Positions 9,195-63,900 of a stretch of DNA of 64,000 nt are shown here, one piece after another. A model generated the notes under the pieces. That model saw nothing but the letters and a program-made list of their open reading frames with translations. It was not told the DNA's origin and searched no databases. A program made the translations under genes and the position numbers. The DNA comes from Candidatus Aquidulcis sp. (lineage in GTDB: Bacteria; Chloroflexota; Anaerolineae; Anaerolineales; UBA4823). Every line of letters begins with the position of its first letter. Positions within the stretch are counted from its first letter, which is position 1. The stretch lies in contig DYIZ01000009.1 of assembly GCA_020723385.1 (NCBI GenBank), positions 3,676 through 67,675 on the forward strand, given 5' to 3'.

Positions 9195-9303
9195 TGGTCA
9201 GTGAACAGTAATCAGTGAACAGTGATCAGTAAATCAATAAGCAGTGGTTCGTCATGCCTCGTCACGGATGACTGATCACTGATAACTGATCACTGATCAC
9301 CGG
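9193..9303. repeat. Tandem-unit hairpin built from CAGTGA(A/T)CAGT units, between the permease and DUF624 genes
   Basis: Left arm GTGGTCAGTGAACAGTAATCAGTGAACAGT (9195-9224). Right arm ACTGATCACTGATAACTGATCACTGATCAC (9271-9300). The reverse complements match at about 26 of 30 positions by eye. Confidence 0.75.
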
Positions 9304-16660: not shown

Positions 16661-17123
16661 CCTCAGGCCGGCCTATAAGCCGCATTCTGTAGCGGACCCG
16701 GAGGCCCGCCGGTGTTCATCTCTCTGGGACGCAGGTCTCCCTGCGCCTCGTGCAGCCTACCCGGGACTCGAATGGTACGAGCAGCACCGTTGTCCCTGTT
16801 TGGCCTTGCTCCGGGCGGGGGTTGCCTGGCCGCGGACATTGCTGTCTGAATCCAGCTACGCTGGATCCGCGCCGGTGGTCTCTTACACCGCCTTTTCACC
16901 CTGACTGGCGGATGGCGTATAGCTTATGGCATATAGCAAATGGCTTTCGCCATAAGCTATAGGCCATTTGCTATTGGCCATCGGCCAGCGGTCTGTTTCT
17001 GTGGCCCGATCCAGTAAATTACTTCGCTCCGGGGTTTCCCCGGCGCCCTGCTCTGCGGAGTGCGGACTTTCCTCCAGTATCCCAGTGTCCCAGGATACCA
17101 GCGAACACCCGGCCGGCCTGAGG
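16661..17123 (-). ncRNA. rnpB: RNase P RNA, bacterial type A
   Basis: The minus strand carries GGAGGAAAGTCCGCACTCC, CACAGAAACAGACCGC, GGGTGAAAAGGCGGTGTAAGAGACCACC and ACAGAATGCGGCTTATAG. P1 pairs CCTCAGGCCGGCC (17123-17111) with GGCCGGCCTGAGG (16673-16661). Confidence 0.9.
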
Positions 17124-17192
17124 TAAACCCATCATACCCCCACGTACATCTCACGTCAACGCTATCAAACAGCTTCCTTTTGGAGAAATATC

Positions 17193-17277
17193 GGACGCGG
17201 ACGAACGCTGACAAACGCGGAATCCGGTTTTGTGTTTTACCAGGTTTTTCAGCGTGAGTCTGCGTCAATCCGCGTCC
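17193..17277. repeat. Long imperfect hairpin (GGACGCGGA-CGAACGCTGA ... TCAGCGTGAG-...-TCCGCGTCC)
   Basis: GGACGCGGA (17193-17201) is the exact complement of TCCGCGTCC (17269-17277). The inner units are partially complementary. It lies between rnpB and the lipoprotein gene. Confidence 0.6.
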
Positions 17278-17304
17278 AATTTTGTGGTCGCCTGCGGATA
17301 AATC

Positions 17305-24293: not shown

Positions 24294-24368
24294 GGTAAAA
24301 CGTAATCCGTAAAACGTAATCCGTAAACCACCTCTTACGTTTTACGTCATTACGTTTTACGTGTTTAC
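24294..24368. repeat. Tandem-unit hairpin built from GTAAAACGTAAT units (2 direct + 2 inverted)
   Basis: GGTAAAACGTAATCCGTAAAACGTAATCCGTAAACC (24294-24329), ACCTC, TTACGTTTTACGTCATTACGTTTTACGTGTTTAC (24335-24368). It occupies most of the 97-bp spacer between the two ATPase genes. Confidence 0.8.
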
Positions 24369-24371
24369 TCT

Positions 24372-27300
24372 CTACAGCTTATTCTCGTCAATCACCCGGC
24401 TCAGCGACTTGTACTTCTCGACCCACAAGCCAAGCAAGCCCAATTTCCAGCGGTAGATTTCAGCGGCGGCGTCGGATTCGCGGCTTTCGATCAGGATATC
24501 GCGCAGCGACAGGTGGTGCAGGGCGTCGCCAATCGCCTGCCGCTCGACCGAGACGCCGCGCTCGGACAGGTAATCTACCAACGAGATGGCGGTGGCTTGC
24601 CCGGTGAGCGGCGCCATCCGGCTGAGGGCGGTCAGCACCAGCCGCTCTACGGAGGTGGATTCGGCCCACAGGTACATGAAATGCGCCTCGCCGGAAGCCA
24701 GGATTTCTTCGAGCGCATCGTTGACGTTGGCGACGGTGATGTAAGAATGCTGGGATTTGTTGTGCTGGTTGACCAGGCTGTGGCAGAGCAGTTGCAGGAA
24801 ATAGGGGTGGCCGGCAGTGACCCGCCAGATTTTATCCAGCGCCAGGTCGTCGTAACGCATGTTGAAGGGCGCGACCGGCTCCTGAATGAGCCGCATTGCC
24901 TCGGTTTTTTCGAGGAAACCGATGTGGCGGTACAGGCTTATATTGAACAGCACGTTCCAGTAATCGGCGGCCAACTCTTCCAGGCGGTGCGTACCGCAGA
25001 AGATGACGCTCAGGTTTTCGGTGTGCTGGATGAGATGGCGCAAGAAGCCGAAGATGGACGGCTCCAAATCGCCGCGGCGTACAGCCGATTCCAGCTCTTC
25101 GAATTCATCGAGCATGAGCAGCAAATGCCGCTCGCCGATGGCCTGGCGCACATTGGCCAGGAACACCCGCTCGAAATATGCAGCCGGGCTGTCGGCAAAA
25201 TCGCTCATTTCGGGCGGGGTGATTTCGAATTTCCGGTCTTCCAACGCGAAGGCAATTTCCGTCGCCAGGCTGAGAAAGAAGTTAGGCAGGCCAGGGTCGA
25301 GGCCGAGCGCCTGACCGTCAATGTACACGGCCTGGTAATTGTCACCCAGCCGGACGGGGAGCTGTTTGAGCAATGAGGTCTTGCCAGTGCGGCGCTGGCT
25401 GATGAGCACCAGGTTGTTGCGGTGCAGTGCAGCCAGGTTTTCCTTGACGAAGGCGATGGTGTCTTCCCGCCCAAAGAACAATGGGGAGCCGGTTTGCAGC
25501 GGCGTACCGACCACGTAGGGGTTGGGGATATGCTGGAACTCGCCCTCGGTGGGCAGCAGGCGGGTGATGTCGGCGAAGTTTTCAACCTGGTCGGGGCCGC
25601 GCGGGTCGGTATACAGGATGACAAAACGGGCGCGGAACTGGTCAACGCCCTTTTCGAGGCGCGGCCGCACCCGCAGGCGCACCTGTATTTCTTCGCCGGG
25701 AGCCACCCGCTCGACTTTGGCCTGGTGATCCACCACCGTGTAATCGGGGTCCGGGGCGATGGTGACGCGCAGGTTGAGCGCCGCGCCGCGCCCGTTATTC
25801 GTCAGGCAAAGCACCAGTGAGACAATATCATCCTGCCAGGTGTGGCGGGTGAGCAGTTGGCAGGCCAGTTGGGCACGGGTTTGCAGCTCGCCCATAGCCC
25901 CAGTGACCACCAGCAGCCAGCTTTCGGCGATACGCTGGACAAGCGGGCGGTCGGCGCTGCCCAGCTCGGTGCGGGCAAAGCGGTCAATGTGGCGCAGCCG
26001 CTCGACGGCGCCTGCCAGGTAAGCGAGCTTGTCTTGGGCGGTGTCCACCCGCTCGTAGGCGCCCAGGGCGCTGATGACGGGCTGGAATTGGGTGAGGGCG
26101 GCGCTGAGGTCTGAAAGGAATGGGGGGATAGGGGGCAGGGGATAGGGGGCAGGGGATTGGCTGGTCGTGGTTCTGTCCCCTGTTCCCTTATCCCCTATCC
26201 CCTTCTCCCCTGTAATTTGAGCAATCGAGTTGGCCTCCAGCGCCGAATGGCAGCGGCGGTAGAGCGAGAGCGCTTCGGCAGCGCCATTCCACTGACTGCT
26301 CTCGGGACTGACCAACTGGACGATGATATTGCGCAGCCCAACCGGCAATAATTCGGGGGTGGAGAAGCCGCTGAATAAATAGTAATAGCCTTCAGCCAGG
26401 GTTGCCAGCGATTGGCTGCGGCCTCCTTCCTGGTTGGTGAGCGCCCCCGGCAGGTTGGCAAGCACGCTGGCCGCGTCGGGATCTTTCCCGGCAGCCTGGG
26501 CTTGCACATGCAGGCGTTCCAGAACGCTGAATGGCTCCGTGATGAGCTGCTGCGCCAGGGTTTCGGCGCGCCCAATGGGTGAATCGCGGTACTCTTCCAG
26601 GCGATGCTCGGCTGCCTCGCGGCGTTTGACCTCGCTTTGGCGATCTTCGATCAGCCAGGCGACCTGGATGGATGTGCCCGCCTGGTCAGCCAGGTCGAGC
26701 AGGAGCGCCTGATCCTCGCGGGAGTAATCCTGCCCCGAGAGCCGCGGCCCCAGGGCGAGGACTCCTACCAGGGTGGAGGTAGCTTTTTCGGCCTGGAATC
26801 TTGGGGAGAGGGTCGTGCTTTCGATCTCCGGGGCGATCAATGGCACGAGCAATTTATAGACCGCGCCTTTGGGAAGCGAGACCACCTGCCCATTGTTCAG
26901 CCGGTTCATGGTGACGATGTCCAGCGGCAGCGCCGGATTCTCCTCGGGCAAGCCGTGCGCGTCGGCGATCTCGAATTTCTTGTCGGCTTGGAGCAGGTAG
27001 ACGGCTCCGTACTGGATGTGCAGCATCTCGGTGGTGCGCTCGACCAGGGTGTGGACCAACTCGCCTAAATCAATGATCGTGCGCACGCAGCGCGAGAATT
27101 CCATGAACATCTGCCGGAAATCCACTTTCTCCCGGTAGAAGCTGCGGTCAATGATGCTTTGCACGCGCCCGCGCATGGGCATGAACAAGGCCGCGATAAC
27201 CAGAGTGGTCACCGCAATGACCAGCGCGGATTGTGTCTGGGTGACCGAGCGCAGTAGCTGCTGAACGATAATGACCACGCCGAAATAGCCTGCCCCGAGC

Positions 27301-28322
27301 AGGCCGGTGACGACGCCGTAAACCAGGGCGCGGTTGATCAGCGTGTCAATATCCCACAGCCGGTAGTGCGTGATAGAGATGGTCAGCGCCAGCGGGACGA
27401 GCAGCAACAAAATCAGATAAATCGGCTGGCCGATAATGGTAAATAGAAGAGACGGCAGTCCGGGGGTCTTGAGCGGCGGCAGAACGAGGGGCGAGACATG
27501 AAAGTAGAAATATCCCAGGAACGCTCCTACCAAAGCGATCACCACCCATTTGGTTTGCTGGCGTTGGATGAGAGTATTGCAGCGATAACGCAAAATTTGA
27601 GCGAGGATGCCGCTGCCAAACCAGCCCAAAATGACAGCCAGCAGGCTGGCTATGCGGACGAAACCATAACCCCGTGCAAATACATCTGGATCACGTGAAA
27701 AAATGAATGCGAAAAAGCGGGCGGGAGTGGACATCTGGGATATGTCCGGCGAGTGACTGGGAATGATCGCCCACAGCGCCAGCCAGCCAACCCAAAACCA
27801 GGCCAGTAGACGCGTCCAGCGCGGGTAGAATTGTCCATCGGGGAAAAGATAAAACACCAGCAGGGTAGAGCCAACGCCAATCCCCTGGATGATCGTGATG
27901 ATCAAAGCGCGGCCGGGCGGTCCAATTTTGAGGACTTCCATATTCGGTGTAATGACGGTTGGGAAGGTAAGCAGCGCCAGGGAGAGCAGCACCGCCATCC
28001 AGTCGTCGGAGCGCCGCCAGAAGATGAGCGCCGCAGTGATGATGAAGAGCAGCAGGGTGAGCAGATCGAGAGCGGTTGTGTAAATGATGAATGCTTCGGG
28101 GCTGAATCCAAGCTGTTCGAGCCACATTCTTTCGATCTGTGGGATGATCGCGGCTTGCCCCATCCGGGCTGGAACCGAGATCGCCAGCATGAACAAGATG
28201 ATAGCTGCCAGCGCCATCCATACCGTGCGAATGAAATGGAGCGCTGCGCCGCGCAGCGGCGGGCGTTCTGTGGTAATCGGTTGGACGGCCTTGATGGGTG
28301 GGTGGGGGAGGGGATGGCTCAT
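24372..28322 (-). CDS. Polytopic membrane / GAF-like sensor protein with a C-terminal STAND/AAA-like ATPase module
   Basis: About 10 hydrophobic helices in res 30-390, then IDRSFYREKVDF. A GAF-like block follows (…YGAVYLLQADKKFEIADAHGLP…LVGVLALGPRLSGQDYSREDQALLLDLADQAG). The C-terminus reads NPYVVGTPLQTGSPLFFGRED, SQRRTGKTS, LLMLDEFEELE. Confidence 0.85.
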   Translation of the reverse strand: MSHPLPHPPIKAVQPITTERPPLRGAALHFIRTVWMALAAIILFMLAISVPARMGQAAIIPQIERMWLEQLGFSPEAFIIYTTALDLLTLLLFIITAALIFWRRSDDWMAVLLSLALLTFPTVITPNMEVLKIGPPGRALIITIIQGIGVGSTLLVFYLFPDGQFYPRWTRLLAWFWVGWLALWAIIPSHSPDISQMSTPARFFAFIFSRDPDVFARGYGFVRIASLLAVILGWFGSGILAQILRYRCNTLIQRQQTKWVVIALVGAFLGYFYFHVSPLVLPPLKTPGLPSLLFTIIGQPIYLILLLLVPLALTISITHYRLWDIDTLINRALVYGVVTGLLGAGYFGVVIIVQQLLRSVTQTQSALVIAVTTLVIAALFMPMRGRVQSIIDRSFYREKVDFRQMFMEFSRCVRTIIDLGELVHTLVERTTEMLHIQYGAVYLLQADKKFEIADAHGLPEENPALPLDIVTMNRLNNGQVVSLPKGAVYKLLVPLIAPEIESTTLSPRFQAEKATSTLVGVLALGPRLSGQDYSREDQALLLDLADQAGTSIQVAWLIEDRQSEVKRREAAEHRLEEYRDSPIGRAETLAQQLITEPFSVLERLHVQAQAAGKDPDAASVLANLPGALTNQEGGRSQSLATLAEGYYYLFSGFSTPELLPVGLRNIIVQLVSPESSQWNGAAEALSLYRRCHSALEANSIAQITGEKGIGDKGTGDRTTTSQSPAPYPLPPIPPFLSDLSAALTQFQPVISALGAYERVDTAQDKLAYLAGAVERLRHIDRFARTELGSADRPLVQRIAESWLLVVTGAMGELQTRAQLACQLLTRHTWQDDIVSLVLCLTNNGRGAALNLRVTIAPDPDYTVVDHQAKVERVAPGEEIQVRLRVRPRLEKGVDQFRARFVILYTDPRGPDQVENFADITRLLPTEGEFQHIPNPYVVGTPLQTGSPLFFGREDTIAFVKENLAALHRNNLVLISQRRTGKTSLLKQLPVRLGDNYQAVYIDGQALGLDPGLPNFFLSLATEIAFALEDRKFEITPPEMSDFADSPAAYFERVFLANVRQAIGERHLLLMLDEFEELESAVRRGDLEPSIFGFLRHLIQHTENLSVIFCGTHRLEELAADYWNVLFNISLYRHIGFLEKTEAMRLIQEPVAPFNMRYDDLALDKIWRVTAGHPYFLQLLCHSLVNQHNKSQHSYITVANVNDALEEILASGEAHFMYLWAESTSVERLVLTALSRMAPLTGQATAISLVDYLSERGVSVERQAIGDALHHLSLRDILIESRESDAAAEIYRWKLGLLGLWVEKYKSLSRVIDENKL
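26122..26212. repeat. Tandem-unit inverted repeat (GGGGATAGGGGGCAG units) inside the 1316-aa coding sequence, in-frame
   Basis: GGGGGGATAGGGGGCAGGGGATAGGGGGCAGGGGA (26122-26156) faces TCCCCTGTTCCCTTATCCCCTATCCCCTTCTCCCCTG (26176-26212). It encodes GEKGIGDKGTGDRTTTSQSPAPYPLPPIPP. Confidence 0.75.
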
Positions 28323-30069: not shown

Positions 30070-32673
30070 TTAACTGATGTCCGCTTTCTCGCTGGCCCAG
30101 AAACGCTGCAGGGCAGCCGCCAGGGGTTGGTGTTCGGGCAGACCAAGCTCAGGGTCTTGCTCGAAGAGGGTGTGAGCGGTCTTGCGGGCTTTCTCGATGA
30201 GGCGCACATCGGTCAGGCTGGCGAGTTTCAATTCGGAGAAGCCTGCCTGCCGGGTGCCGAGGAAGTCGCCGGGGCCGCGCTGCTCCAAATCACGTTCGGC
30301 CAGCACAAAGCCGTCATTCGTCTCGGCCATCGCCATCAGACGCTCGTTCTCGGCGGCGTCGGGGGTTTCCGGGATGAGGATGCAGAACGATTGCGCCTGG
30401 CCGCGCCCGACGCGCCCGCGGAACTGGTGAAGTTGCGCCAGCCCGAAGCGGTTAGCGCCCTCGATGAGCATGATCGTGGCGTTGGGCACGTCCACCCCCA
30501 CCTCGACCACCGAGGTGGAAACGAGAATATGCAGCTTGCCATCGCGGAAATCGGTCATCACCGCGTCTTTCTCGTCGGGTTTCATGCGCCCATGGAGCAG
30601 GCCAAGCCGCAGGGCTGGGAAGATTTCCTTTTGCAAGCGGGCGTGTTCTTCCACGGCGGCTTTGTCGGAATTTTCCGATTCTTCCACCAGCGGGTATATG
30701 ATAAATGCCTGGTGACCCCGTTCGATCTCGCTGCGGATTTTGGAATAAGCCCGTTCGCGCTCTCGGGGGAAGAAGACCGCCGTCTCGATGGGCTGCCTGC
30801 CAGGCGGCATCTCGTCCATCACCGAAAGATCGAGATCGCCGTAAACAGTGAGCGCCAGCGAGCGCGGGATAGGCGTGGCGGTCATCACCAGCAGGTGGGG
30901 ATTCTCGCCTTTCGAGCGCAGCAGCGCTCGCTGCTCGACGCCGAAGCGGTGCTGTTCGTCAATCACCGCCAGTTGCAGGTTGGCAAAGGTGACGGGGTCC
31001 TCGATGAGGGCGTGAGTCCCAATCACGAGCTGGATCCCGCCCTGTGCCAGGCCCTCTCGGATGTCGCGTTTCTCATTCTCAGGAGTCGCTCCCACCATCA
31101 GCCGAATCGCCTCAGGGGGAATAATCCCGTCCATCAATTTCAGGAAACTCCGGTAGTGCTGCTCGGCGAGGATGCCGGTGGGGGCCATGACGGCGGCTTG
31201 CGCGCCGTGCCGGACGATCATCGCCACAGCCAGCGCGGCGATCACGGTCTTGCCGGAGCCGACGTCGCCTTGCAGCAGGCGGTTCATCGGTCGGCCAGAG
31301 GCCAGGTCGGTGCGCGCATCGGACAGGGCGCGCTGCTGCGCCCCGGTGAGCGGGAAGGGCAGGCGGGCGATCTGCTCCGCCAGCCACTCATCGGGCGTGT
31401 CGAAGACATGCGCCGAGCGTTCCTGCCAGTGACGTTTTTGTCGCAGCACGCCAAGCTGCAACAAGAAGATTTCGTCGAACGCCAGTCGGTAGCGGGCGGA
31501 TTTGAGCAGGTCGTGCGAATCGGGAAAGTGCGCCTGCATGAGCGCCGTGGGCAAATCTATCACCTCGGCGGCGCGGCGCAGATCGGTGGTGAGGGGGTCC
31601 TGCACACGCGGCGCCCAGTGTTCCACAACGGCGTGCATGTGATTGCGCAGCCAGCGCTGGGTGATGTTGGCGGTGAGCGGGTAGATCGGCACGATACGGT
31701 TGGTGTGCAGGTTTTCCTGCTCCATCGGCTCGACTTCGGGGTTGGTCATCACCAACCGGCCCAGGTATTGCTCGATTTTGCCTGAGAGCACCACGTACAT
31801 GCCGGTGCGCACGCGTTTGGCGATGTAGGGATTCCACCAGGTGACGCGCAGCGCGCCAGAGCCGTCGGTGACGACCGCTTCGACCAACTCGCGCCGTCCC
31901 GAGTGGATGCGGCGGGTGACGACGCTCTCGGCCTTGCCGATGATGGTCACTTCGTCGCCGTAATCCAGGCGGTTGATGGGCTTGAGCTGGCTGTAATCGT
32001 CGTATCGGCGTGGGAAGAAATAGAGCATATCGCCGAGATTGTGCAAGCCGAGACGCGCCAGGGTTTGACCGTGCTTGGGGCCGACGCCGGGCAGTACGGT
32101 GACGGAGGCATCCAGCGCCGCAGGAGGGCCAGACGGTATCGGAGGGGATACGCGCTTTTGGGGGCGCATCTCAACCCTGGGGGCGGGGGGAGCGGGGGGC
32201 GAAGGCCGAGGGCCGAGGGCCGAAGGCCGAGGGCCGAGGGGCGGATCGCCGGAGGGGATGATATCCCCGCTGGGAGCAACTTCGGCGGGCTGAGATGGGG
32301 GAGTGGGCGCGCGGGGTTCTGTTTTCTGCCGCGGCTCGATTTTGGGGCGGGGAGGCCGGTCAACCGGCTTGGGTGATGGTTTTTCGCCGCCCGGCTGAGT
32401 CGGCAGGCTGGGGATGGGTTCGCCAGCTTCGCGTTGAATGCGTTTCCAAAGGCCCTCCAGCGCATCGGAGCGTCCCTGCGGGCTGAGATGGGGATAATCG
32501 TGGAGGCGAGATACCACTGCCTGGACGATGGCTTCGGGCAAATTATTGGCGCGGGCTTCAGCTTCCCACGGGCCGAGCATCTTGTCCAGCCCGCCGATGA
32601 TGGCGCGGTTTTCGTAGCCTTGTTCGACTTCGAGCTTGAGAAAGTTGTATAGTTTCTTGAGGGAAGGGTTCAT
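30070..32673 (-). CDS. recG: ATP-dependent DNA helicase RecG with an extended Pro-rich N-terminal region
   Basis: Motifs GDVGSGKT, DEQHRFG, TATPIPR, QLHQFRGRVGRG and a wedge/OB region. Start trimmed from 32841 to ATG 32673 (MNPSLKKLYNF…), which removes the overlap with the + gene at 32817. Confidence 0.88.
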   Translation of the reverse strand: MNPSLKKLYNFLKLEVEQGYENRAIIGGLDKMLGPWEAEARANNLPEAIVQAVVSRLHDYPHLSPQGRSDALEGLWKRIQREAGEPIPSLPTQPGGEKPSPKPVDRPPRPKIEPRQKTEPRAPTPPSQPAEVAPSGDIIPSGDPPLGPRPSALGPRPSPPAPPAPRVEMRPQKRVSPPIPSGPPAALDASVTVLPGVGPKHGQTLARLGLHNLGDMLYFFPRRYDDYSQLKPINRLDYGDEVTIIGKAESVVTRRIHSGRRELVEAVVTDGSGALRVTWWNPYIAKRVRTGMYVVLSGKIEQYLGRLVMTNPEVEPMEQENLHTNRIVPIYPLTANITQRWLRNHMHAVVEHWAPRVQDPLTTDLRRAAEVIDLPTALMQAHFPDSHDLLKSARYRLAFDEIFLLQLGVLRQKRHWQERSAHVFDTPDEWLAEQIARLPFPLTGAQQRALSDARTDLASGRPMNRLLQGDVGSGKTVIAALAVAMIVRHGAQAAVMAPTGILAEQHYRSFLKLMDGIIPPEAIRLMVGATPENEKRDIREGLAQGGIQLVIGTHALIEDPVTFANLQLAVIDEQHRFGVEQRALLRSKGENPHLLVMTATPIPRSLALTVYGDLDLSVMDEMPPGRQPIETAVFFPRERERAYSKIRSEIERGHQAFIIYPLVEESENSDKAAVEEHARLQKEIFPALRLGLLHGRMKPDEKDAVMTDFRDGKLHILVSTSVVEVGVDVPNATIMLIEGANRFGLAQLHQFRGRVGRGQAQSFCILIPETPDAAENERLMAMAETNDGFVLAERDLEQRGPGDFLGTRQAGFSELKLASLTDVRLIEKARKTAHTLFEQDPELGLPEHQPLAAALQRFWASEKADIS
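32200..32241. repeat. 21-bp tandem duplication (2 copies, 20/21 identical) inside recG
   Basis: CGAAGGCCGAGGGCCGAGGGC (32200-32220) and CGAAGGCCGAGGGCCGAGGGG (32221-32241). They encode GPRPSAL/GPRPSPP on the minus strand. Confidence 0.85.
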
Positions 32674-32816
32674 CAGAGGGTTTCGATCAATAGGATTTTC
32701 AACCGCCCATTGGCGTGTGATTTTTATCGCAGCCGTGATTATAACAGACGCTTGCCCGCTCTTGCCTCTCCATCCGTAATCGCATATACTATTCGAGCCC
32801 CGGAGACCTGCCAGCC

Positions 32817-33065
32817 ATGACACTTCCACGACGATTGACACTTTGGCTTCTCGCTGCTCTTATCTTATCGTTTCTGGCTGCAACCAGCTTTTTTTCCAAC
32901 GCCTTTGCTCAACAGCCCTCACCCACCCCTGGCCCTGACCCTACCTCGGTCGTCATCGGCGTCATGGATGCGCCGCGTCCTGGGCTGATCATGGTGGTCG
33001 CCTTCGTGCTGGTTGCGGGCTGGATCGCCTTTTGGACGATCAAGAACAGAATCAGGCGCGGGTGA
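32817..33065 (+). CDS. Small secreted/membrane-anchored hypothetical protein (82 aa)
   Basis: Signal-like LTLWLLAALILSFLAATSFFSNAFA, a Pro-rich spacer and a C-terminal TM LIMVVAFVLVAGWIAFW followed by basic residues. Confidence 0.5.
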   Translation: MTLPRRLTLWLLAALILSFLAATSFFSNAFAQQPSPTPGPDPTSVVIGVMDAPRPGLIMVVAFVLVAGWIAFWTIKNRIRRG

Positions 33066-55113: not shown

Positions 55114-55139
55114 CCCCTCTCCCAGAATTGGGAGAGGGG
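55114..55139. repeat. REP-like GC hairpin (CCCCTCTCCCA-GAAT-TGGGAGAGGGG)
   Basis: 11-bp perfect stem about 50 nt after the upp stop. It is preceded by AGGTTGCA tandem units (55064-55092) and followed by a G-rich tail. Confidence 0.7.
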
Positions 55140-55254
55140 CCGGTAGAGAACACCGGGGCCGGGGGTGAGGGCGGAAATGCTGTTTAGAAAGACCGATATT
55201 CCTCGGAATAATTGCCGGTTTGCCACGACTCATTGAGTGAAAAGGAGGGCCACA

Positions 55255-57837
55255 ATGTTCAGAAAACGACGCAATCCAATCATCACAATCGTCGTATTGT
55301 TTGCCATTTTGAGTAATTCCACCCCGGTCAACCCGATAGTCGCTGCACCGAATAATTATCCTTATACTCGAACGCCGAGCGATAATTCGACCGCGTACCT
55401 GCCAATAATCAGGAAACCTCAGCAAGTGACTCTCCATTTTTGGGAGCAAGAAGACGATATAGCTGATGCTTTATTAGATGATTTAATCCATGATTTTGAG
55501 TTGACTCATCCCAACACCGTCATAAAACGGATCCATTTCACAAATGATGATCTGCTTCAGCAATTTGAATCGGCTTCGTTGTTGGAATCGCCCCCAGAAG
55601 TTGTACGTGTTCCCAACGATTTTACGGACAATTTCGTTGAACCGGGATTCCTGGCCGAAATTGGGGAAATCATTGAGCCATCCTATTTCGACGATTTCAT
55701 TGCGGGTTCGCTCGAGGCGGTAACCATCAGTCAAACGATTTGGGGACTCCCGGATAACTATGGCAATCACTTGATGCTGTTTTACAACAAAGACCTGATT
55801 CCCACCCCTCCTCTCACCTTCGATGAATTGATCACCCAAGCTCTGACGCTGACAACCGGTGATATCCAGGGTTTTGCCTACAACCTGAACGAACCCTCTT
55901 GGGGCGCTGGTTTTTGGGGAGCCTTTGGAGGCTGGCCGCTGGATGAATACGACCAGCCTCAGTTCGATCAAACCTTCGTTGATTACCTGATCTTCGTCAA
56001 GTCGCTCAAGGACAATGGGGTTGTGTCGTCGGAGTGTGATTTCACTTGCGCCGATTTCCTCTTCAGAAGCGGCCAGATGGCCATGATTATCAACGGAGAA
56101 TGGACATTGGGAGATTACTATCTGATTTTGAGAGATAAACTGGGTACAGCCCCGGTACCCCCAATCAATGGACACACCTACACGGAAATGACATCTGGTA
56201 AATATTATATGGTCGCCGCTCCGGTGCAAGACGATCCTGTCAAAAAAGCCGCGGTAGCTGAATTCATCCTTTACATGACCTCTTCCCAGGCGCAGCAACG
56301 ATGGCTCGAAACGTTTGGGAGACTGCCGTCCAATAAATCTGTCGCTAACGATCCCTTGATAACCAGCGATCCTCTCCTGGCAGGCTCGATGGCTGCCCTG
56401 GCAAATGGGCGTGGATACCCGCCTGCGAAAGAGATGATCTGCGCCTTGAACGCCTGGCGTCCCAATCTTGAAGGTGTGATGCAGGGCACTCTCTCCCCAG
56501 AAGAGGCAGCTCAGGCTGCACAATTATATGTGGACATGTGCGATGATGTGCCTGTGACCCTTGCTTTTTGGGAGCAAGAAAGCGATGAAGTTGATGATTT
56601 TATAGACGACTTGATTGCCGAATTCGAAGTAATACATCCCTTCATTACAGTAAGTCGAACCCATTATGCTAATGAAGATCTCCGTGATCAGTTTATGACT
56701 GCTTCGCTGGCGGAGGCTCCCCCAGAAGTTGTACGTGTTCCCAATGATTTTACTTATGATTTTGCTGAGCCAGGATTCTTGGCCGAGATGAGTGCAATTG
56801 TTGATCCCGTTTATTTCAACGAATTCTTTGCGGGTTCATTGGAGCCGGCAACTCTCGATCAAACGATCTGGGGCCTCCCGGATAACTATGGGAATCATTT
56901 GATGCTGTATTACAACAAGGATCTGATTGCCTCGCCGCCGCTGACCTTCGAAGAATTGATCACCCAGGCTCTGACCCTGACCGTTGGTGATATCCAGGGT
57001 TTTGCTTTTAACCTGAATGAGCCATTTTGGGGCGCTGGCTTTTGGGGCGCTTTTGGCGGTTGGCCGCTGGATGAATACGATCAGCCGCAGTTCGATAACC
57101 AAACCTTTGTTGATTACTTGACCTTCGTCAAATCGCTGAAGATCAACGGAGTCGTGCCGGAAGAATGTGACTACGCCTGCGCTGATACGCTTTTCAAAGA
57201 TGGTCAGGCGGCCATGATCATCAATGGCGATTGGGCGATGAAGGATTACGATCAAGCGTTAGGCGACAAGCTCGGCACAGCCCCAGTGCCCCCAATCAAT
57301 GGACATGCCTATACAGAAATGACCGCCGGTAAGTATTACATGGTTTCCTCACCCGTAATAGACGATCCGGATAAAAAAGCCGCGGTAGCCAAATTCGTCC
57401 TATTCATGACCTCCGCCCAGACGCAGCGACGATGGCTCGAAACGTTTGGAAAACTGCCATCCAATATATCTGTTGCCAACGACCCATTGATCACCGGCGA
57501 CCCGCTCCTGGCAGGCTCGATGGCTGCCCTGGCAAATGGGCGCGGAATGCCCCCCGCGAAAGAGATGCGCTGTGCCTGGAATGCCTGGCGTCCCAATCTG
57601 GAAGGTGTCATGCAGGGATCTCTCTCGCCCCAGGATGCAGCCCAGGCCGCACAAGAAGCCGCCGACGATTGTATCGCCACATTGTATCCGCACCCGACGA
57701 GCACCCCCATCCTGCCGAGGGGAACTAATTCGCCGACAACCGTATTGCCATATTGGGGCTTTGACCCATTTGTTCCGGAGTCCCCATTCACCCTCATTCG
57801 CGCCTTCGTGATCCATTCGTGGATGGTTGATCCTTGA
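55255..57837 (+). CDS. ABC transporter (CUT1-type) solute-binding protein with two tandem binding domains; no adjacent permease genes
   Basis: VTLHFWEQEDD… (nt 55426) recurs as VTLAFWEQESD… (nt 56554), a period of 1128 nt (376 aa), with clear collinear similarity throughout. The start is either ATG 55255 or 55237. Confidence 0.85.
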   Translation: MFRKRRNPIITIVVLFAILSNSTPVNPIVAAPNNYPYTRTPSDNSTAYLPIIRKPQQVTLHFWEQEDDIADALLDDLIHDFELTHPNTVIKRIHFTNDDLLQQFESASLLESPPEVVRVPNDFTDNFVEPGFLAEIGEIIEPSYFDDFIAGSLEAVTISQTIWGLPDNYGNHLMLFYNKDLIPTPPLTFDELITQALTLTTGDIQGFAYNLNEPSWGAGFWGAFGGWPLDEYDQPQFDQTFVDYLIFVKSLKDNGVVSSECDFTCADFLFRSGQMAMIINGEWTLGDYYLILRDKLGTAPVPPINGHTYTEMTSGKYYMVAAPVQDDPVKKAAVAEFILYMTSSQAQQRWLETFGRLPSNKSVANDPLITSDPLLAGSMAALANGRGYPPAKEMICALNAWRPNLEGVMQGTLSPEEAAQAAQLYVDMCDDVPVTLAFWEQESDEVDDFIDDLIAEFEVIHPFITVSRTHYANEDLRDQFMTASLAEAPPEVVRVPNDFTYDFAEPGFLAEMSAIVDPVYFNEFFAGSLEPATLDQTIWGLPDNYGNHLMLYYNKDLIASPPLTFEELITQALTLTVGDIQGFAFNLNEPFWGAGFWGAFGGWPLDEYDQPQFDNQTFVDYLTFVKSLKINGVVPEECDYACADTLFKDGQAAMIINGDWAMKDYDQALGDKLGTAPVPPINGHAYTEMTAGKYYMVSSPVIDDPDKKAAVAKFVLFMTSAQTQRRWLETFGKLPSNISVANDPLITGDPLLAGSMAALANGRGMPPAKEMRCAWNAWRPNLEGVMQGSLSPQDAAQAAQEAADDCIATLYPHPTSTPILPRGTNSPTTVLPYWGFDPFVPESPFTLIRAFVIHSWMVDP

Positions 57838-57935
57838 TTTTGCACTCATGTGCTTGCTCCTCCAATCAATCTCAGGTACACTGTCGTTAGCAGCGAGTCA
57901 GATACACATCTCCCGGTTTCACTGGAGACCGCCCC

Positions 57936-60900
57936 GTGGTCTGTCCGAAGTGCCAACACACTGAGTTCGACTCTCACGCGCCGTGCCCCAGGTGCGGCTT
58001 CAGCGGCGACGCGGCGCGGCTCGAACGCCTCTCGCAGCTAAACTTTTTGCTCGATGAGCTGGGCAAGTGGGGGGATGTGCCCGCCAGCGAGCGCGAAAAT
58101 CTTCGCCGGATTTATGGCCTGCAGCGGCGCAAGCTCGAAGTCGAGTTGAATCTGCGCCAGCCGCCCCTCGACCCGAAAGCGGCGGCAGAATCCCGGCTGA
58201 AACTCATTCAACTCACTGGTTTTCTGCAAGCCATCCCGCAATTCGTCAACGACCGGGTGCTGGCAGTTAATGTCGCCCAGGCGCTGCGCGATTATTTGTA
58301 CGCCGAGCGCCAAACCCTCGCCGACCAGCTCCTCGACGCGCCTCCCACCCCCGAGCCGATGGCCGGAATAGCTGCCCTGGCGCGCTTGAAATTCCGCCTC
58401 GAATCGCTCGAAAAGTTGCACAACGATGGCAAGCTGCTTGCATCCGATAAAACCTTTACCCGCATTCAGGCCGAACTGAATCGCGCCATAGGGCAGTACG
58501 AAGACTCCCTCGGCTTGCGCCACCGCCCCGCGCTTTCCCCCTCTCGCCCCTCGCCCCACCCTCCACCCTCCACCCTCCACCCTCCACAACCCTCACACTC
58601 CGCCCCTCGCCCCTCGGCCCCCGCGCCTCGCCCCCCGCGTCCCCCGCTCACCTTCGACCGCATCTGGCGCACGCTCCTCTCCGAGCGCACTCTCAACGTC
58701 ATGCTCTTCCTCGGCGTGGCGCTGCTCTTCGCCGCGGCTGTCTCGCTCGTCGTCTGGAACTGGCAGGCCTTCCCGCCCTGGCTGCAACTGACCTTCATCG
58801 CCCTGTTCACCGGCATTTTCTACGCCCTGGGTTGGTACGTGCGCACCCGCATGAAACTGCGCGGCTCCGGCCTGGCGCTGACCGCTGTGGCCTCGCTGCT
58901 CGTCCCGCTCGATTTCTACGTCGTTTATCTCTACGGCGATTTCCCCCGCGCCATCTGGCCAGATGTCTGGCTGCTGGCATCGGGCGTGTGCCTGGTTTTG
59001 TATTTGCTCACCGCGCTTTTCGTACAGGCTGAATTCTTCGGCTACCTGGTTGCGCTGGCTGGCGGGAGCGCCCTGGCTGCGGCTATGCAGGTAGGCGGGA
59101 TCAGCGCCGATGTGTGGCACGGCGTGCTGGGTGTGCTGGCCTTAGCGTATGCCTTCGCCGGGGAGGGATTGTTCTCGGCGCGCGGGCGCTGGCGGCTGCT
59201 GGCTGGGCCGTTGTGGCGTTCAGCGATGGCTGGCGCGGCGGTGCTGATGCTGTTGATGCTCGGACGTGGCTGGCAGACGGACGCCAGCGATGCGTTTTAC
59301 CTGGCATTGGCAGGGGATTGGTGGCTTGGTGGGATTATCTTCGCCCTGGGAGTGGCCCGCTTCCGCAGCCGGACGATTGCGTTGGCCGCCGCGATCAGCT
59401 TTCCCGCCGCAGCGCTGCTCACCCAGCGGGTAATCTTCTCCCATTGGGGCATCGAGACCGCCTGGAATGGCGTGGGCCTGGCGCTGCTGGCCCCCGTTTA
59501 CCAGTGGGTCGGGTGGAAGTTGATCGTGCCTGCCGTAAAACAACCCTCCGCGGGGAGTGATGAAAAACCGCCCGCCCCGGACGCAGCCCAATCGAAGGCG
59601 GCCGATTTCCGCCGCGCCTGCGGGCGGATTATTCTTGGGATGGGAATTTTAGTGATGGCGGTTGCCGCTGCCTGGTCGCTGGCCGACGCCAGCGCGGTGG
59701 GCGTGGTTCACCCCCTGTTGGCGGCGAGTGTTGCGCTGATTGCCGCGTTGTGGCGGCGTCCCTGGCTGACGCTGATCGCTAGTGGATTGCTGCTCTCCGG
59801 CTCGGCCGGTCTGACCTCCGCCCTGGGCGGGGCGCTGTCGCAATTGGGTCTGACCTGGTCGCTGCTGTCGGTTTTGCACGTGATCGCAGCGGTGAGGCTG
59901 GGGAGCGGAGGGCGAGGGGCGGAGGGCGAGGGCCGAAGGGCGAAGGCCGCCAGGCAGGCTGAGCGTAGTCGAAGCCCGCTGCTCCTCTCCGGCTGGATCA
60001 TCGCCGCGCTGGCGCTGCTGCCGCCATTGTTAATGCTCGACCGCCCGATCTCCACCAACGCCCTCGGTAACTGGATTTTGCTCAACGGCTGGCTGGCCTA
60101 CCTGTCGGCGAAAGAATCGCCCCGGCGCACGTCAGGCTGGCTCGATGCGCGCCTGTTCCAGTGGTTGTCGGCGCTGTCTATCCTGCCGTGGGTGTGGCTG
60201 CTGTGGGAGCGTTGGAAGCCTGCCGACAGCCAGTTGCCATTGGCTTATAGCGCGACCGCCTGGGCGCTGCTGGCGTTTGGGCTGTGGGCGCAGCGACGCG
60301 CTCATGCTTTCGGTTTGCCGTGGAAGGTTGCGGCGCACCTGGCAGCATTACTGGCGCTGGCGGTCAGCGTCGTCTATTACGATCCGCTCTGGCTGGCGAT
60401 CACATTCTTGCTGGCTTCGGCGTTCTATTTCGCGGCCGCGCCGCTGCTCCACGAGCGCTGGTGGCTAGCCGCCGGGGGAGCAACCTTCGCCGTGGGTTGG
60501 ATGGAAGGGTTGGACTGGCTGAAGCTGCCCGCCGATTTCCAAAGCCTGGCGCTGGCGGCCGTCGTATTGGCTTTCGTCGCGGCGGGCAGCCTGTTGCAGC
60601 GCCGCCGGGTTCATTCGAGGGAATTTTTCTGGCCGCTGTACCTTGCGGCGCTGGCTATCGGATTGGCGGCCTTCGGTTGGGGATTGATCAATATTCTCGA
60701 TACCGGAGGCAGCGACGCTGCGCTGACCTGGGCGGCGGTGGGGCAGTTGGTTTTGGCCGTCGCGGCAGGCTGGTACGCCTGGCTAACGGGAAGTGAGCAT
60801 TACGGGCATATCGCTGCCTGGCTGGGCGTGTTCGCCGGGGCGCTGCTTGCCTCTGCATACAGCCGCGGCAGCGGGCGCTCGGCGGCGCTGGCCGCGCTGA

Positions 60901-63900
60901 CTGCGGTGGTGTACGTGCTGGCGGAGCGGGGAATGTATTGGGTTGGGAGGGGCAGCAGGGGCAGACACGTAGGTCTGCCCATACGGGGGTGGCCCCTGCG
61001 GGGGTTGCCCCTGCGTGGGTGGGCGCGGCGGGCGTGGCGATTGTTCCGCCGCCCGCTGATCGTGGCGGGCTGGGCAGTATCCGTTGGCGCGATTGGGCTG
61101 TGCCTGCTGCGCAATCTCGTGCTGCTGCATGGCGGCCCGACGCGCGAAACCTGGGCTATTGTTGGGCTGACGTTGGTGACGGCGCTGTACGCAGTTTCGG
61201 CGGTGATGTATCGCAAGCAGAAGAAGATTGCCCCACGGTTCGTCTGGCTGGCGGCGGCGCTGATCTTCGCCCCATGGACGCTGCTCACTCACCAGGGGTT
61301 ATATTTTTGGCCGCGACCGGCTGCGCCCGATTACGCTATCAGTTGGATGATCCTGGCGCTGCTGGAAATTGGCCTGGGGGCGGGATTATCTGCCGTGTTG
61401 GGCGATCCCAACCGGCGTTGGACTCGCCCGCTGTGGGCGATCCCCCATCTCTTGACGCCGTTCGCCCTGCTGTGGGGCATCGCCAGCCCGCAGGCATCGT
61501 CAGTCTCAGTGATGTTGGGGATCGTCTTTTATCTCATCGCGACGGCGCTGGATTACATCAATCGCCCATCGCCCGATGCGGCGCCGCGCGCCCGCTTCCT
61601 GTACCCGGCGGCGCTGCTCATCCCGCTGTGGGCGGTGTATCTGCTGGCTCGATACGTTCCCGACGCGCCGCAGACGACTTACGGCTGGCTGGTATTGGGC
61701 TTCACGCTGCCCATGCTCGTGGCGGGGGTGTGGCTGGCGGAGCGGGAAAAGGTTTTTCGCATTCCATTTTACGCCGCGGCTTATCTCTCGATGCTGGTTG
61801 GCACGGCGCTGCTGGCCCACGACCGCCCGGCGCTGATCGGGGCGCTGCTGTTCGATGTGCTGGTGGCGCTGGTATCGGCCTGGCAGTTCCGCGAGAGCCT
61901 TTGGCTATATCTGGTCTGCGCCGAGCTGCCCGCTGCGCTGCTGCTGGCCTCGCTGGAAATCGGCATCCCGGTTGACCGGCAAGGTTGGGTGGCGATTGCC
62001 ATCGCGGGCGTATATTTGCTGGCGGCGCGGCTGCTTGGCAGAAACCTGACAGGTCTATCCCGCAGCCCGATCAAACCCGGTGACGCACAAAAGACAACAA
62101 CTGAAGCAGGTCTGAGTATCAAGAAAGACCTGTCAGGTCTTGACTTCATCTCCCCATTGCTCGTCACCGCCTTCGCGCTGACGGCGATCGGACTGCCGCT
62201 GTCCAGCCGCGACCGGGTGGGGGCGCTCGTCGGGTATGGGGCGGCGGCGGTGATCTACGCGCTGACCTCGGTCTGGCTGCGGCAGCCGCTGCTGCTCGCC
62301 CCGGCTATCGGACTGGCGGCTGTGCCGTATTGGGTGGGGGTGCTGGAATTGGGTGTGGCGCAGCGTGAGTATGGGCTGTCGGTCTGGCCGTTCATTGCGA
62401 TTGTGCTGCTGCTGGCCTATGGGATTGATTATTTGTCCCGGCCTGGTGGAGAACCCCCTCCCCAGCCATCCCCCATTTCGACTACGGAAATGGGGGGAAG
62501 CGGAGGGGGCCAGGGGTTCCCGTGGTATTCCCCGGAGCGGTGGCTTTCCGCGTTGTGGGATCGCATCAACGGTTGGTGGGCGCTGTATTTCTACGCGGCA
62601 GCCTACCTCGGCGCGGCGGCGAGTGTGGCGTTGTCGCTGGCTTACCCCGACCGGCAGCCGATCGCGCTGGCGCTGGCGGCAATCGTGTTCAGCCTGGCGC
62701 TGTGGCGCTTCCGGCTGCGCGGCTGGCTGCTGATTGCGGCGGGCGCGTGGCAGTTGTCGGTGTTGGCGGCTATCTACTGGTATTTTTGGGCGAACGAGAT
62801 GCCCCTCGGCTGGGCGACGACCGCCCTGGCCTTTTTGCCCGTCGTGTGGGTCACGGCGATCTGCGGGCTGGTGTTGCAGCGCCAATTGGGCGAGCCGTCT
62901 CCCCTGGGGCTGGGCGGGGCAGCGCTTTTCAAAGGCTGGTCGCGCCCGTTGTATCTGCTGGCGGCGGTGGATGTCGTTCTCACGCAGACCGGCGCATTCT
63001 CGTCGAGCGGCGATAGCGCCTGGGTGACGTTATCGAACGCGCTGTTGCTGGCGGCGCTGGCGACAGCCTGGGCGTCGCGACCTCTCGGCTGGCTGTCGGC
63101 GGGATTGGGGTTGCTCTCACTGATCCAGGGTTTAGCATGGGTGAAAGCCGACGAGACCATTTGGCCGTGGGCGCTGGCGCTGCTGGCATTGGGGTATGGC
63201 TCGGCGGGTTACGGACTGAAAGCGGCGCGGCAGATCCAGGCCAAAACCTGGATCCCGGCCTGGGTGGAGCCGCTGTCAGGAGTGTGGGAGCGCCCGCTGC
63301 GCCTGGGCGGTTGGTGGCTGTCGTTCGCCAGTCTGCTTCCGGCGTTGTTGAACGGCGCAATCGAAATCATCAAGGTTGTGGTATTGCGGAGCCTGCCCAA
63401 CGAATTCCTCGAGATGGCATCCATCCGGTCGAACATCCCTCAAGTTCAGATGACGGTAGCCGTCTTTGCCATTTTGGGCTTATTCTACCTCCTATCCGCT
63501 TTTGCCGACCGGCGGCGCTGGCTGGGGTATGGGGCGGTGGGATTGCTGCTGATGGCCTGGTCGCTGGAATTTTTGTTGGTGTGGGGCGAGCGCGATGTGC
63601 AGGTGTATGTTCTCCCGGCGGGGCTGTATCTTCTGGGGATCGGCTGGCTGGAGTGGCGCTTCGGCAGCCGCACGCTGGCGCGCTGGGTGGACTATGCCGC
63701 TCTGCTGCTCCTGCTCGGCCCGGCCTTCTACCAATCATTGGGCGATAACGGCTGGCGCTATGCGCTGGTGATGGGCGCAGCCGGTTTGTTCGTCATCTGG
63801 TGGGGCAGCGCCCGGCGGCTGCGGCGCTTCCTGTACGTGGGCGTCCTCGGGGTGACGCTGGACATCGCCGGGCAGCTCATCGAGCCACTGCTGTCGGTCA

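Follow-up and report, generated by a model that had tools for sequence, protein, structure and literature searches.

In-frame palindromic repeats and heptamer arrays in the gene of a giant membrane protein of Candidatus Aquidulcis sp.

We studied a 64,000-nucleotide stretch of contig DYIZ01000009.1 from Candidatus Aquidulcis sp. (Chloroflexota; Anaerolineae), hereafter the window, in which the gene of a 2030-aa polytopic membrane protein carries five GC-rich tandem or palindromic tracts, named E1 to E5, in one unbroken open reading frame (ORF). Alignment with orthologs indicates that E2 to E5 are most plausibly lineage-specific insertions, and that E1 is a variable low-complexity Pro-rich linker, not an insertion. 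We consider it likely that non-autonomous small palindromic repeats landed in permissive loops of this protein and survived in frame as flexible hydrophilic peptides, and that slippage of heptamer units remodelled the linker and one of the loops.

According to this scheme, the short hydrophilic loops of a conserved Anaerolineae membrane protein would tolerate extra sequence, and four of them would have gained DNA from small elements scattered through Chloroflexota genomes and environmental genomes. E3 would be a GTAG-tagged hairpin of the repetitive extragenic palindromic (REP) type with local 15-nt duplications after it; E4, an element of ~95-99 nt with invariant ACCTGACAGGTCT inverted ends; E5, a nested C-run/G-run hairpin; and the tail of E2, a small hairpin whose loop is conserved. 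Copies would persist where the net added length keeps the frame and the frame in use is free of stops; C-runs, G-runs and element ends would then translate to flexible Pro/Gly/Ser/Arg/Lys peptides that may be harmless in loops.

Host gene, tracts and ortholog loops

The host gene starts at a GTG within a stop-free frame of 2036 codons (57891-63998, + strand), and its product was identical to database protein P0001 (2030 aa). The protein presents an N-terminal CxxC...CxxC zinc-ribbon-like motif, ~190 soluble, helical residues, a Pro-rich linker and then ~35 hydrophobic blocks; a Pfam search found no domain in its 2030 residues. There were 161 homologs of 1900-2000 aa, every named source being a metagenome-assembled genome (MAG) of Chloroflexota/Anaerolineae, and the best ortholog was only 48-52% identical. 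On these comparisons the gene is real and conserved. The GC content of the ORF was 65.3% versus 52-60% across the remaining window, with values of 0.66, 0.51 and 0.79 at the three codon positions, and is probably due to an Ala/Leu/Gly/Trp/Arg-rich composition. The gene and its tracts, some delimited with Tandem Repeats Finder (TRF), were distributed as follows:

57936-63998, + strand: host gene of the 2030-aa polytopic membrane protein; the window stops 9 codons short of its end
58543-58647, + strand: E1, C-rich heptanucleotide arrays CTCGCCC x2.1, CCACCCT x4.6 and CGCCCCT x5.4 (TRF)
59905-59949, + strand: E2a, G-rich heptamer array (GCGGAGGGCGAGGG x2.8) of period 7/14 (TRF), encoding GGRGAEGEGRRAK
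59957-59976, + strand: E2b, hairpin GGCT-GAGCGTAGTCGA-AGCC, its 12-nt loop conserved and its 4-bp stem variable
60958-60984, + strand: E3a, 27-nt hairpin GGGGCAGAC-ACGTAG-GTCTGCCC-ATAC with the layout of a GTAG-type REP
60984-61038, + strand: E3b, 15-nt (5-codon) tandem repeat x3.7, CGGGGGTGGCCCCTG (TRF), encoding RGWPL RGLPL RGWAR
62042-62140, + strand: E4, inverted-repeat element with exact 13-bp ends and a 69-nt interior of lower GC, encoding NLTGLSRSPIKPGDAQKTTTEAGLSIKKDLSG
62454-62509, + strand: E5, nested C-rich/G-rich palindrome CCCCCTCC..TCCCCCATTTC-GACTACG-GAAATGGGGGG..GGAGGGGG, encoding PPPQPSPISTTEMGGSGGG

The initial annotation had placed five GC-rich tandem or palindromic elements in this frame, and its description of their sequence held throughout: all five lay at the given positions within the 2030-aa ORF. 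The CCACCCT array of E1 occupied 58556-58587 with 100% unit match, followed by CGCCCCT at 58601-58638; E2 was a G-rich tract of complement type, 78% complementary to E1 over 55 nt; and E3 consisted of GGCAGAC-ACGTAG-GTCTGCC at 60960-60979 and then the 15-nt unit. The ends of E4 (ACCTGACAGGTCT at 62044-62056, whose exact complement lies at 62126-62138) enclosed an interior of 50.7% GC versus 65.3% in the ORF, and E5 had a perfect core, CCCCCATTTC-N7-GAAATGGGGG, at 62470-62496 inside 23-nt arms that were 74% complementary. The claims about the protein were borne out in part. E2 to E5 lay between hydrophobic segments, whereas E1 had hydrophobic sequence on its 3' side only; all five encoded hydrophilic stretches, but that of E4 was rich in Lys/Thr/Ser/Gly, not in Pro/Gly/Arg.

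To place the tracts in the protein family, the host protein was aligned with 38 and then with 99 orthologs, using loop windows bounded by conserved flanking residues. The lengths obtained were:

E2 loop: commonest length 29 residues (55 of 99 orthologs), query 46, 7 orthologs as long
E3 loop: commonest length 26-28 residues, query 46, 3 orthologs as long
E4 loop: commonest length 22 residues (66 of 99 orthologs), query 51, 1 ortholog as long
E5 loop: commonest length 25 residues (56 of 99 orthologs), query 46, 1 ortholog as long
E1 linker: median 44 aa, range 12-70, query 51, 18 of 99 orthologs at least as long

The query loops holding E2 to E5 thus exceeded the commonest ortholog length by 17-29 aa with the frame intact (the E3 loop was 13-20 aa longer than those of the orthologs), and no ortholog in the alignment shared the inserted residues. 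Without GEPPPQPSPISTTEMGGSGGG (21 aa), the E5 loop had 25 residues, exactly the commonest length; without 32 residues, the E4 loop had 19, within 3 of the commonest 22. The claim that all tracts are insertions therefore stands for E2 to E5, with the polarity taken from distant outgroups only, and fails for E1, because a Pro-rich linker stands there in every ortholog.

Freedom from stops was unremarkable for most tracts, since E1, E2, E3 and E5 were each open in 5 of the 6 frames. E4 alone, with its 51% GC interior, passes a real stop-codon filter, being open in only 2 of 6. When folded as single-strand DNA, E4 (z-score -2.7) and E5 (-4.1) beat shuffled sequences, and E1 (-1.35), E2 (+1.4) and the whole of E3 (-0.2) did no better than shuffles, although the 8-bp hairpin within E3 is real.

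Directly 3' of the giant gene, and sometimes overlapping it, a PrsW-family protease gene was present in 4 orthologous loci (L002, L003, L255, L256; loci and proteins used for comparison are given by L and P numbers). This protease is a possible functional partner of the giant protein; the window ends 5' of the position where its gene would stand.

Dispersed families related to the inserts

The pattern ACCTGACAGGTCT-N55-85-AGACCTGTCAGGT, modelled on E4, had at least 138 copies in at least 120 contigs of a species-representative genome collection. Among 80 titled contigs, 75 belonged to Anaerolineae or other Chloroflexota, the rest being mostly short-form arrays (see below) or length outliers. 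Most listed copies (94/138) were 91-93 nt long, 92 nt being the most frequent length, and their ends extended to 15 bp, with an outermost pair, G:C (14) or A:T (13), that covaried on both sides; in one subfamily the terminal inverted repeats reached ~25 bp. Interiors were very different between genomes and alike within one, e.g., in contigs of MAG H111_85, and one subfamily shared a central TGTCC[A/G]CGC. Their mean GC content of 0.51 was close to that of the E4 interior (50.7%, as against 0.65 in the host ORF), and a profile of the family matched E4 at E=1e-8 and nothing else in the window. RNAalifold on 29 members supported only the outer stem (15 pairs). A short form, in which only 3-5 nt lie between the ends, was also present in tandem arrays.

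Several copies were clustered. In locus L031 five copies with conserved flanks stood ~138 nt from one another, and L009 had four in 1.1 kb; other clusters were found in L023, L027 and L037, which like L009 and L031 belong to MAG H111_85, and in L017 and L042. Arrays of short-form hairpins had regular periods of 55-69 nt, and one of these loci, L017, is binned as Flavobacterium.

Rfam gave nothing relevant at 57000-64000 of the window (E<=1) or in six loci of the family (gathering threshold), and the arm sequence of E4 matched, in the literature searched, only work unrelated to bacterial repeats. Other identities considered for E4 were discarded. It is not a hairpin formed by a REP doublet (REPIN), as 113 interiors folded no better than shuffles (mean z-score -0.26) and were not self-complementary. 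A possible hammerhead core (CUGAUGAG and CGAAA) had an order and spacing of motifs that fit no hammerhead topology, and no Rfam hammerhead was found. Sites of the attC or Xer type are recognized by an RYYYAAC/GTTRRRY motif and by spacer length; inspection of E4 revealed no such motif, and its spacer length was wrong. No convincing longer element bounded by E4 ends was found, and the one Y1_Tnp-like ORF near an E4 copy, in L054, was flanked by a different repeat.

The second large family corresponded to E5. The pattern TCCCCCATTTC-N5-9-GAAATGGGGGA had at least 124 copies in at least 120 metagenome contigs, against an estimated ~0.6 by chance, and the 11-bp stem of E5 is identical in all of them. 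An upstream CCCCCTCC or a downstream GGAGGGGG was present in 89 of the 124 listed copies, and 10 had both, as E5 does. Of the 124 listed copies, 23 lay 10-25 nt upstream of a ~120-aa gene of DUF559 (Vsr-like endonuclease) starting MHKRTTPK (among L124-L243, e.g., L142, L156 and L179), with GGAGGGGG placed like a ribosome-binding site; many E5-type copies had an ATG exactly 40 nt upstream of the hairpin. Such an arrangement points to a conserved unit of hairpin plus DUF559 gene. Neither the window nor the Anaerolineae loci contained a DUF559 gene.

The relatives of the smaller hairpins were fewer. On the other strand E3a ends in GTAT, one base from the GTAG tag. The pattern GGGGCAGAC-N4-8-GTCTGCCC-N-TAC had 11 matches in 9 viral contigs, two of them with the identical ACGTAG loop, and the 27-nt unit of E3a was one base off copies there. 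Seven of the 11 read CCCCTAC, i.e., GTAG-GGGCAGAC... on the other strand, where only the fourth base of the tag is informative because the pattern itself required GTA. Units resembling E3a were found in L038 and L097. Each unit of the adjoining E3b was a small G/C hairpin. For E2b, the sequence CTGAGCG.AG.CGAAG had 4 further copies in ~0.9 Mb of Anaerolineae loci (twice in L002, once each in L012 and L033), where ~0.007 would be expected by our estimate; its loop, GAGCG[A/T]AG[T/C]CGA, was closed elsewhere by the stems CCCT/AGGG, TGCT/AGCA and CACT/AGTG. One of these copies was located in the E3 loop of ortholog P0018. A separate intergenic hairpin of the window, CCCCTCTCCC-N6-GGGAGAGGGG followed by GGGGGTGAGGGC (55114-55180), had counterparts of the same type in Anaerolineae loci L092 and L094.

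Some copies of both large families lay in frame within unrelated genes. Among the listed copies of the E4 family, 130 of 138 had no long open frame across them and 8 were inside long ORFs. Genes with in-frame copies of this family were two polyketide synthases (L044, and L096, where three short forms in tandem follow the ketosynthase domain), a reverse transcriptase (L103), a Type ISP restriction-modification enzyme (L041) and a DNA methylase (L091). The peptides were of the form NLTGL..DLSG or KPDRS..RPVRF, the former corresponding to the frame used in the window. Copies of the E5 family were inside long ORFs in 17 of the 124 listed cases, such as the editing domain of leucyl-tRNA synthetase just before the TTRPDT motif (L172, L194), a DEAD/MrfA helicase (L125) and a MobA-like transferase (L183), where they encoded PPP..SPIS..GGG in the same frame as the window.

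Orthologs of the giant protein carried other repeats in their loops. P0018 had the REP-like CCTGAGCGTAGCCGAAGGG, and P0020 four 33-nt C7/G7 hairpins, in the same loops as the query inserts; LRSGQA/LRTGL-type peptides appeared there in several more. P0028 (L255) contained an in-frame AGACTTGGCAAGTCT-TCT-AAGACTTGCCAAGTCTT hairpin at aa ~530, in another loop, with the architecture of the E4 short form and a different core. The presence of different repeats in the same loops makes these loops recurrent landing or tolerance sites. Just upstream of the start codon of the ortholog in L256, a pair of E4-type cores was located at 863-921. The 'RPVRS' peptide of P0011 was a coincidence at the DNA level. 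It is also unlikely that the matches elsewhere are fragments of the giant gene moved by gene transfer, since their flanks were unrelated.

Heptamer arrays in the window

E1 encodes the family-wide Pro-rich linker 5' of the first transmembrane segment, and no heptamer array was found in the DNA of this linker in 3 orthologs. The unit of E2a was of the reverse-complement type of the CGCCCCT of E1, and E2a was 84% identical over 50 nt to an array at 32187-32236 inside a RecG gene of the same window (30070-32841, - strand). The three arrays had a common degenerate unit, CGSCCCT or its complement AGGGSCG, which translates to Pro-rich sequence one way and to Gly/Arg/Glu-rich sequence the other. E1 and E2 cannot be regarded as two arms of one giant hairpin, as they are separated by 1.24 kb of sequence for transmembrane segments that every ortholog conserves. 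A further array-bearing gene was that of a 1316-aa STAND protein (24372-28322, - strand). The two features are:

32179-32245, - strand: RecG heptamer array, GGGCCGA x6.4 on the + strand, encoding the Pro-rich linker PPLGPRPSALGPRPSPPAPP
26123-26210, - strand: hairpin with heptamer-array arms in the STAND-protein linker, in frame, fold z-score -4.1

The RecG linker forms part of an N-terminal extension, and the array was missing from a syntenic relative, L244 (75-78% nucleotide identity). In the STAND protein the hairpin lay in the GAF/STAND-NTPase linker, encoded GEKGIGDKGTGDRTTTSQSPAPYPLPPIPP, and fell in a stretch that was variable among 22 orthologs; in the 77%-identical ortholog of L244 the homologous stretch was 7 aa shorter (21 nt, three heptamers) and had no hairpin.

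Tandem arrays of period 7, 14 or 21 were about tenfold enriched in the window, with 22 TRF rows, whereas 20 shuffles averaged 1.9 and gave at most 6. The period-7 rows comprised E1, E2a, 32196-32240 and 9 others, and period-7 arrays were also frequent in other Anaerolineae DNA. Five further hairpins whose arms were arrays of 7-14-nt units and their complements were apparently intergenic (514-591, 9194-9300, 16912-16981, 17187-17283 and 24295-24368); each had its own unit, and the two tested gave fold z-scores of -5.4 and -6.6. The arm at 9262-9300 contained TAACTGA/TCACTGA units, like heptamer repeats of Beggiatoaceae and cyanobacteria (PMC4679880). The 74-nt hairpin at 24295-24368 was missing from L244, where the intergene gap measured 22 nt versus 98 here, and comparison with this syntenic relative shows that such elements come and go.

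The short tandemly repeated repetitive sequences of cyanobacteria are heptameric simple-sequence repeats. Other heptamer repeats are GGGNATC of Xanthomonas and Nostoc (PMC4692102) and TAACTGA of Beggiatoaceae (PMC4679880). E1, E2a, the RecG array and the intergenic arrays resembled them in their 7-nt units, often rich in G-tracts and often numbering about four; E1, E2a and the RecG array in particular consisted of recurring head-to-tail units. The known families are described as mainly intergenic and under-represented in coding DNA, whereas here three arrays were translated, in both orientations (Pro-rich or Gly/Arg-rich), and, unlike the known families, several intergenic arrays were inverted pairs forming long hairpins. 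E1 and E2a are simple-sequence arrays, most likely produced by replication slippage within an existing linker (E1) or loop (E2).

Origin of the inserts and relation to known repeats

Among the alternatives, it is unlikely that all the tracts were made in place and none is mobile, i.e., that slippage and template switching in fast-evolving low-complexity loops generated them and that the likeness to sequences elsewhere is GC-rich convergence. The tandem heptamers of E1 and E2a, the local 15-nt triplication of E3b and the excess of heptamers across the window agree with such an origin, as do the alignment of the STAND-linker hairpin to the non-hairpin L244 sequence, with a difference of 21 nt (three heptamers), and the private unit of each array-armed intergenic hairpin; for E1, E2a and E3b it probably holds. 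For the remaining tracts it meets the exact 13-nt ends of E4 at the family spacing, with at least 138 copies elsewhere, the 11-bp stem of E5 with the same outer arms in its family, and the E3 unit one base from its viral-contig copies. Convergence cannot account for any of the three. A function that keeps the inserts is very improbable. The mRNA or DNA structures might act as translational pauses for co-translational membrane insertion, as RNase or terminator signals or as G-quadruplexes, or Arg/Lys-rich cytoplasmic loops might fix topology; the peptides of E2, E3 and E4 were indeed net positive (K+R 7, 13 and 5 versus D+E 3, 2 and 3), E4 and E5 folded much better than shuffles, and the CCACCCT array of E1 reads (GGGTGGA)4 on the complementary strand, four-unit G-tract arrays of this sort having been shown to form G-quadruplexes (PMC4692102). 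Against this, the inserts were conserved in 0 of 99 orthologs, most of which have minimal loops, and the same families occurred in proteins unrelated to this one and, for the most part, between genes. Least credible of all is that the perfect heptamer array of E1 is a phase-variation switch, in which gain or loss of one 7-nt unit shifts the frame before the first transmembrane segment and silences the membrane domain. The 100% unit identity of CCACCCT x4.6 suggests recent slippage, the number of nucleotides in the unit is not divisible by 3, and the array stands between the soluble N-terminal domain and that segment; but it has only ~4 units, the orthologs examined had no such arrays, and heptamer arrays were common in the non-coding DNA of this genome too.

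For insertion of mobile repeats, which we prefer for E3 to E5 and the tail of E2, we infer arrival by transposition, with a RAYT-type (REP-associated tyrosine transposase) HUH transposase moving the GTAG unit and another enzyme moving E4 and E5; the inserts would be neutral passengers and would play no functional part in the protein. For moving GTAG units, RAYT-type enzymes are the textbook candidates (PMC3733652). Several results weigh against this origin. A tblastn search of the window with one query found no Y1_Tnp-like (RAYT) ORF, nor was a flanking transposase gene found there, and none was bracketed by E4 ends in the 8-kb loci. The flanks of 70 E4-family copies showed no direct repeat that would mark a target-site duplication, and the interior of E4 had no match to an interior-only nhmmer profile of its family, so that its membership rests on the two ends and the length. 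The initial annotation had called for further copies of each element in the genome; dispersed families were found elsewhere, but no second copy of E3, E4, E5 or the E2 tail was found in the 64-kb window, which for E3 to E5 leaves the activity of the families in the source genome unproven. With the closest ortholog only ~50% identical, there is no close-range empty site for the giant ORF, and the non-hairpin counterpart of the STAND-linker hairpin means that some hairpins may be shaped in situ and not inserted.

It is also conceivable, if doubtful, that the E4-type element (AAACCTGACAGGTCT ... AGACCTGTCAGGTTT) represents a class of small mobile or recombinogenic elements, undescribed and spread across Chloroflexota, and not an ordinary miniature inverted-repeat transposable element (MITE) or REPIN, and that a DUF559 (Vsr-like nuclease) gene unit has the E5-type hairpin as its mobile or regulatory end. 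The E4 type measured ~96 nt in total, with a 33-nt short form and 15-bp ends invariant across many genera; its interior was hypervariable, unstructured and of fixed length, and it had no target-site duplication, RAYT link, Rfam model or mention in the literature searched. Such an element could be moved by a site-specific enzyme. In its size (~92-99 nt), its terminal inverted repeats of 13-15 bp, its multicopy, non-coding and mostly intergenic nature and its occasional clustering the E4 family resembled MITEs and REPINs. Unlike MITEs it showed neither target-site duplication nor an autonomous insertion sequence partner, and unlike a REPIN hairpin its interior was not self-complementary and was hypervariable between genomes yet fixed in length, and a short form exists.

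RPEs (Rickettsia palindromic elements), with which the initial annotation had compared all five tracts, are small palindromic dispersed repeats found in frame within protein-coding genes (Ogata et al. 2000, as cited in PMC10969869 and PMC3733652). The comparison suits E3 to E5 and the E2 tail, and does not extend to E1 and most of E2, which are simple-sequence heptamer arrays and not palindromic mobile units. As in the RPEs described in those accounts, a hydrophilic peptide was added at permissive sites and several elements occurred per genome or gene; the E2 to E5 loops likewise presented in-frame sequence at sites where orthologs lack it. The host phylum is different and no sequence relationship was noted, a distinction drawn without direct comparison to RPE sequences. 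RPE-1 is ~150 bp and short RPEs are CGTC-tagged (PMC3733652), whereas E3 is of the GTAG type on inspection; the consensus of the E4 and E5 families shows no GTAG/CGTC end tag, although no search aimed at tags was made. In R. conorii a large share of RPE copies is described as intragenic, compared with 8 of 138 (E4) and 17 of 124 (E5) listed copies here. We regard the resemblance as one of behaviour more than of family membership.

GTAG-tagged REPs are units of 20-40 bp in which a stem of 5-13 bp closes a loop of 2-20 nt and one end carries an unpaired GTAG; GTAG repeats occur in Chloroflexi, and single or grouped intragenic REPs encode 20-30 aa (Di Nocera et al. 2013, PMC3733652). E3a has a GC-rich stem of 8-9 bp that closes a 6-nt loop, with a tag left unpaired at one end, and differs in that the tag is GTAT, the window holds a single copy and no RAYT gene was seen there. 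By its sequence it fits the GTAG-REP layout with a putatively mutated tag. The proposal that these inserts are an independent example in a very different lineage is less new than claimed, because REPs with GTAG or CGTC tags have been documented inside genes in many phyla, and Chloroflexi are among the known carriers of GTAG repeats (PMC3733652).

The general picture is unchanged, as intragenic REPs and RPEs are already established in Rickettsia and other bacteria; what is new is the host lineage and the apparently undescribed families. A single essential-looking, deeply conserved Anaerolineae membrane protein would have absorbed at least three families of small palindromic repeats together with heptamer arrays, and the same loops would have been struck independently in different orthologs. 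In Chloroflexota proteomes such inserts inflate and distort both alignments and domain boundaries, and they single out the loops that are permissive and probably exposed in a 2000-aa protein of unknown function. The two well-populated families, that of the element with ACCTGACAGGTCT ends and that of the TCCCCCATTTC hairpin often found 5' of DUF559 genes, may serve as leads to the enzymes that move them.

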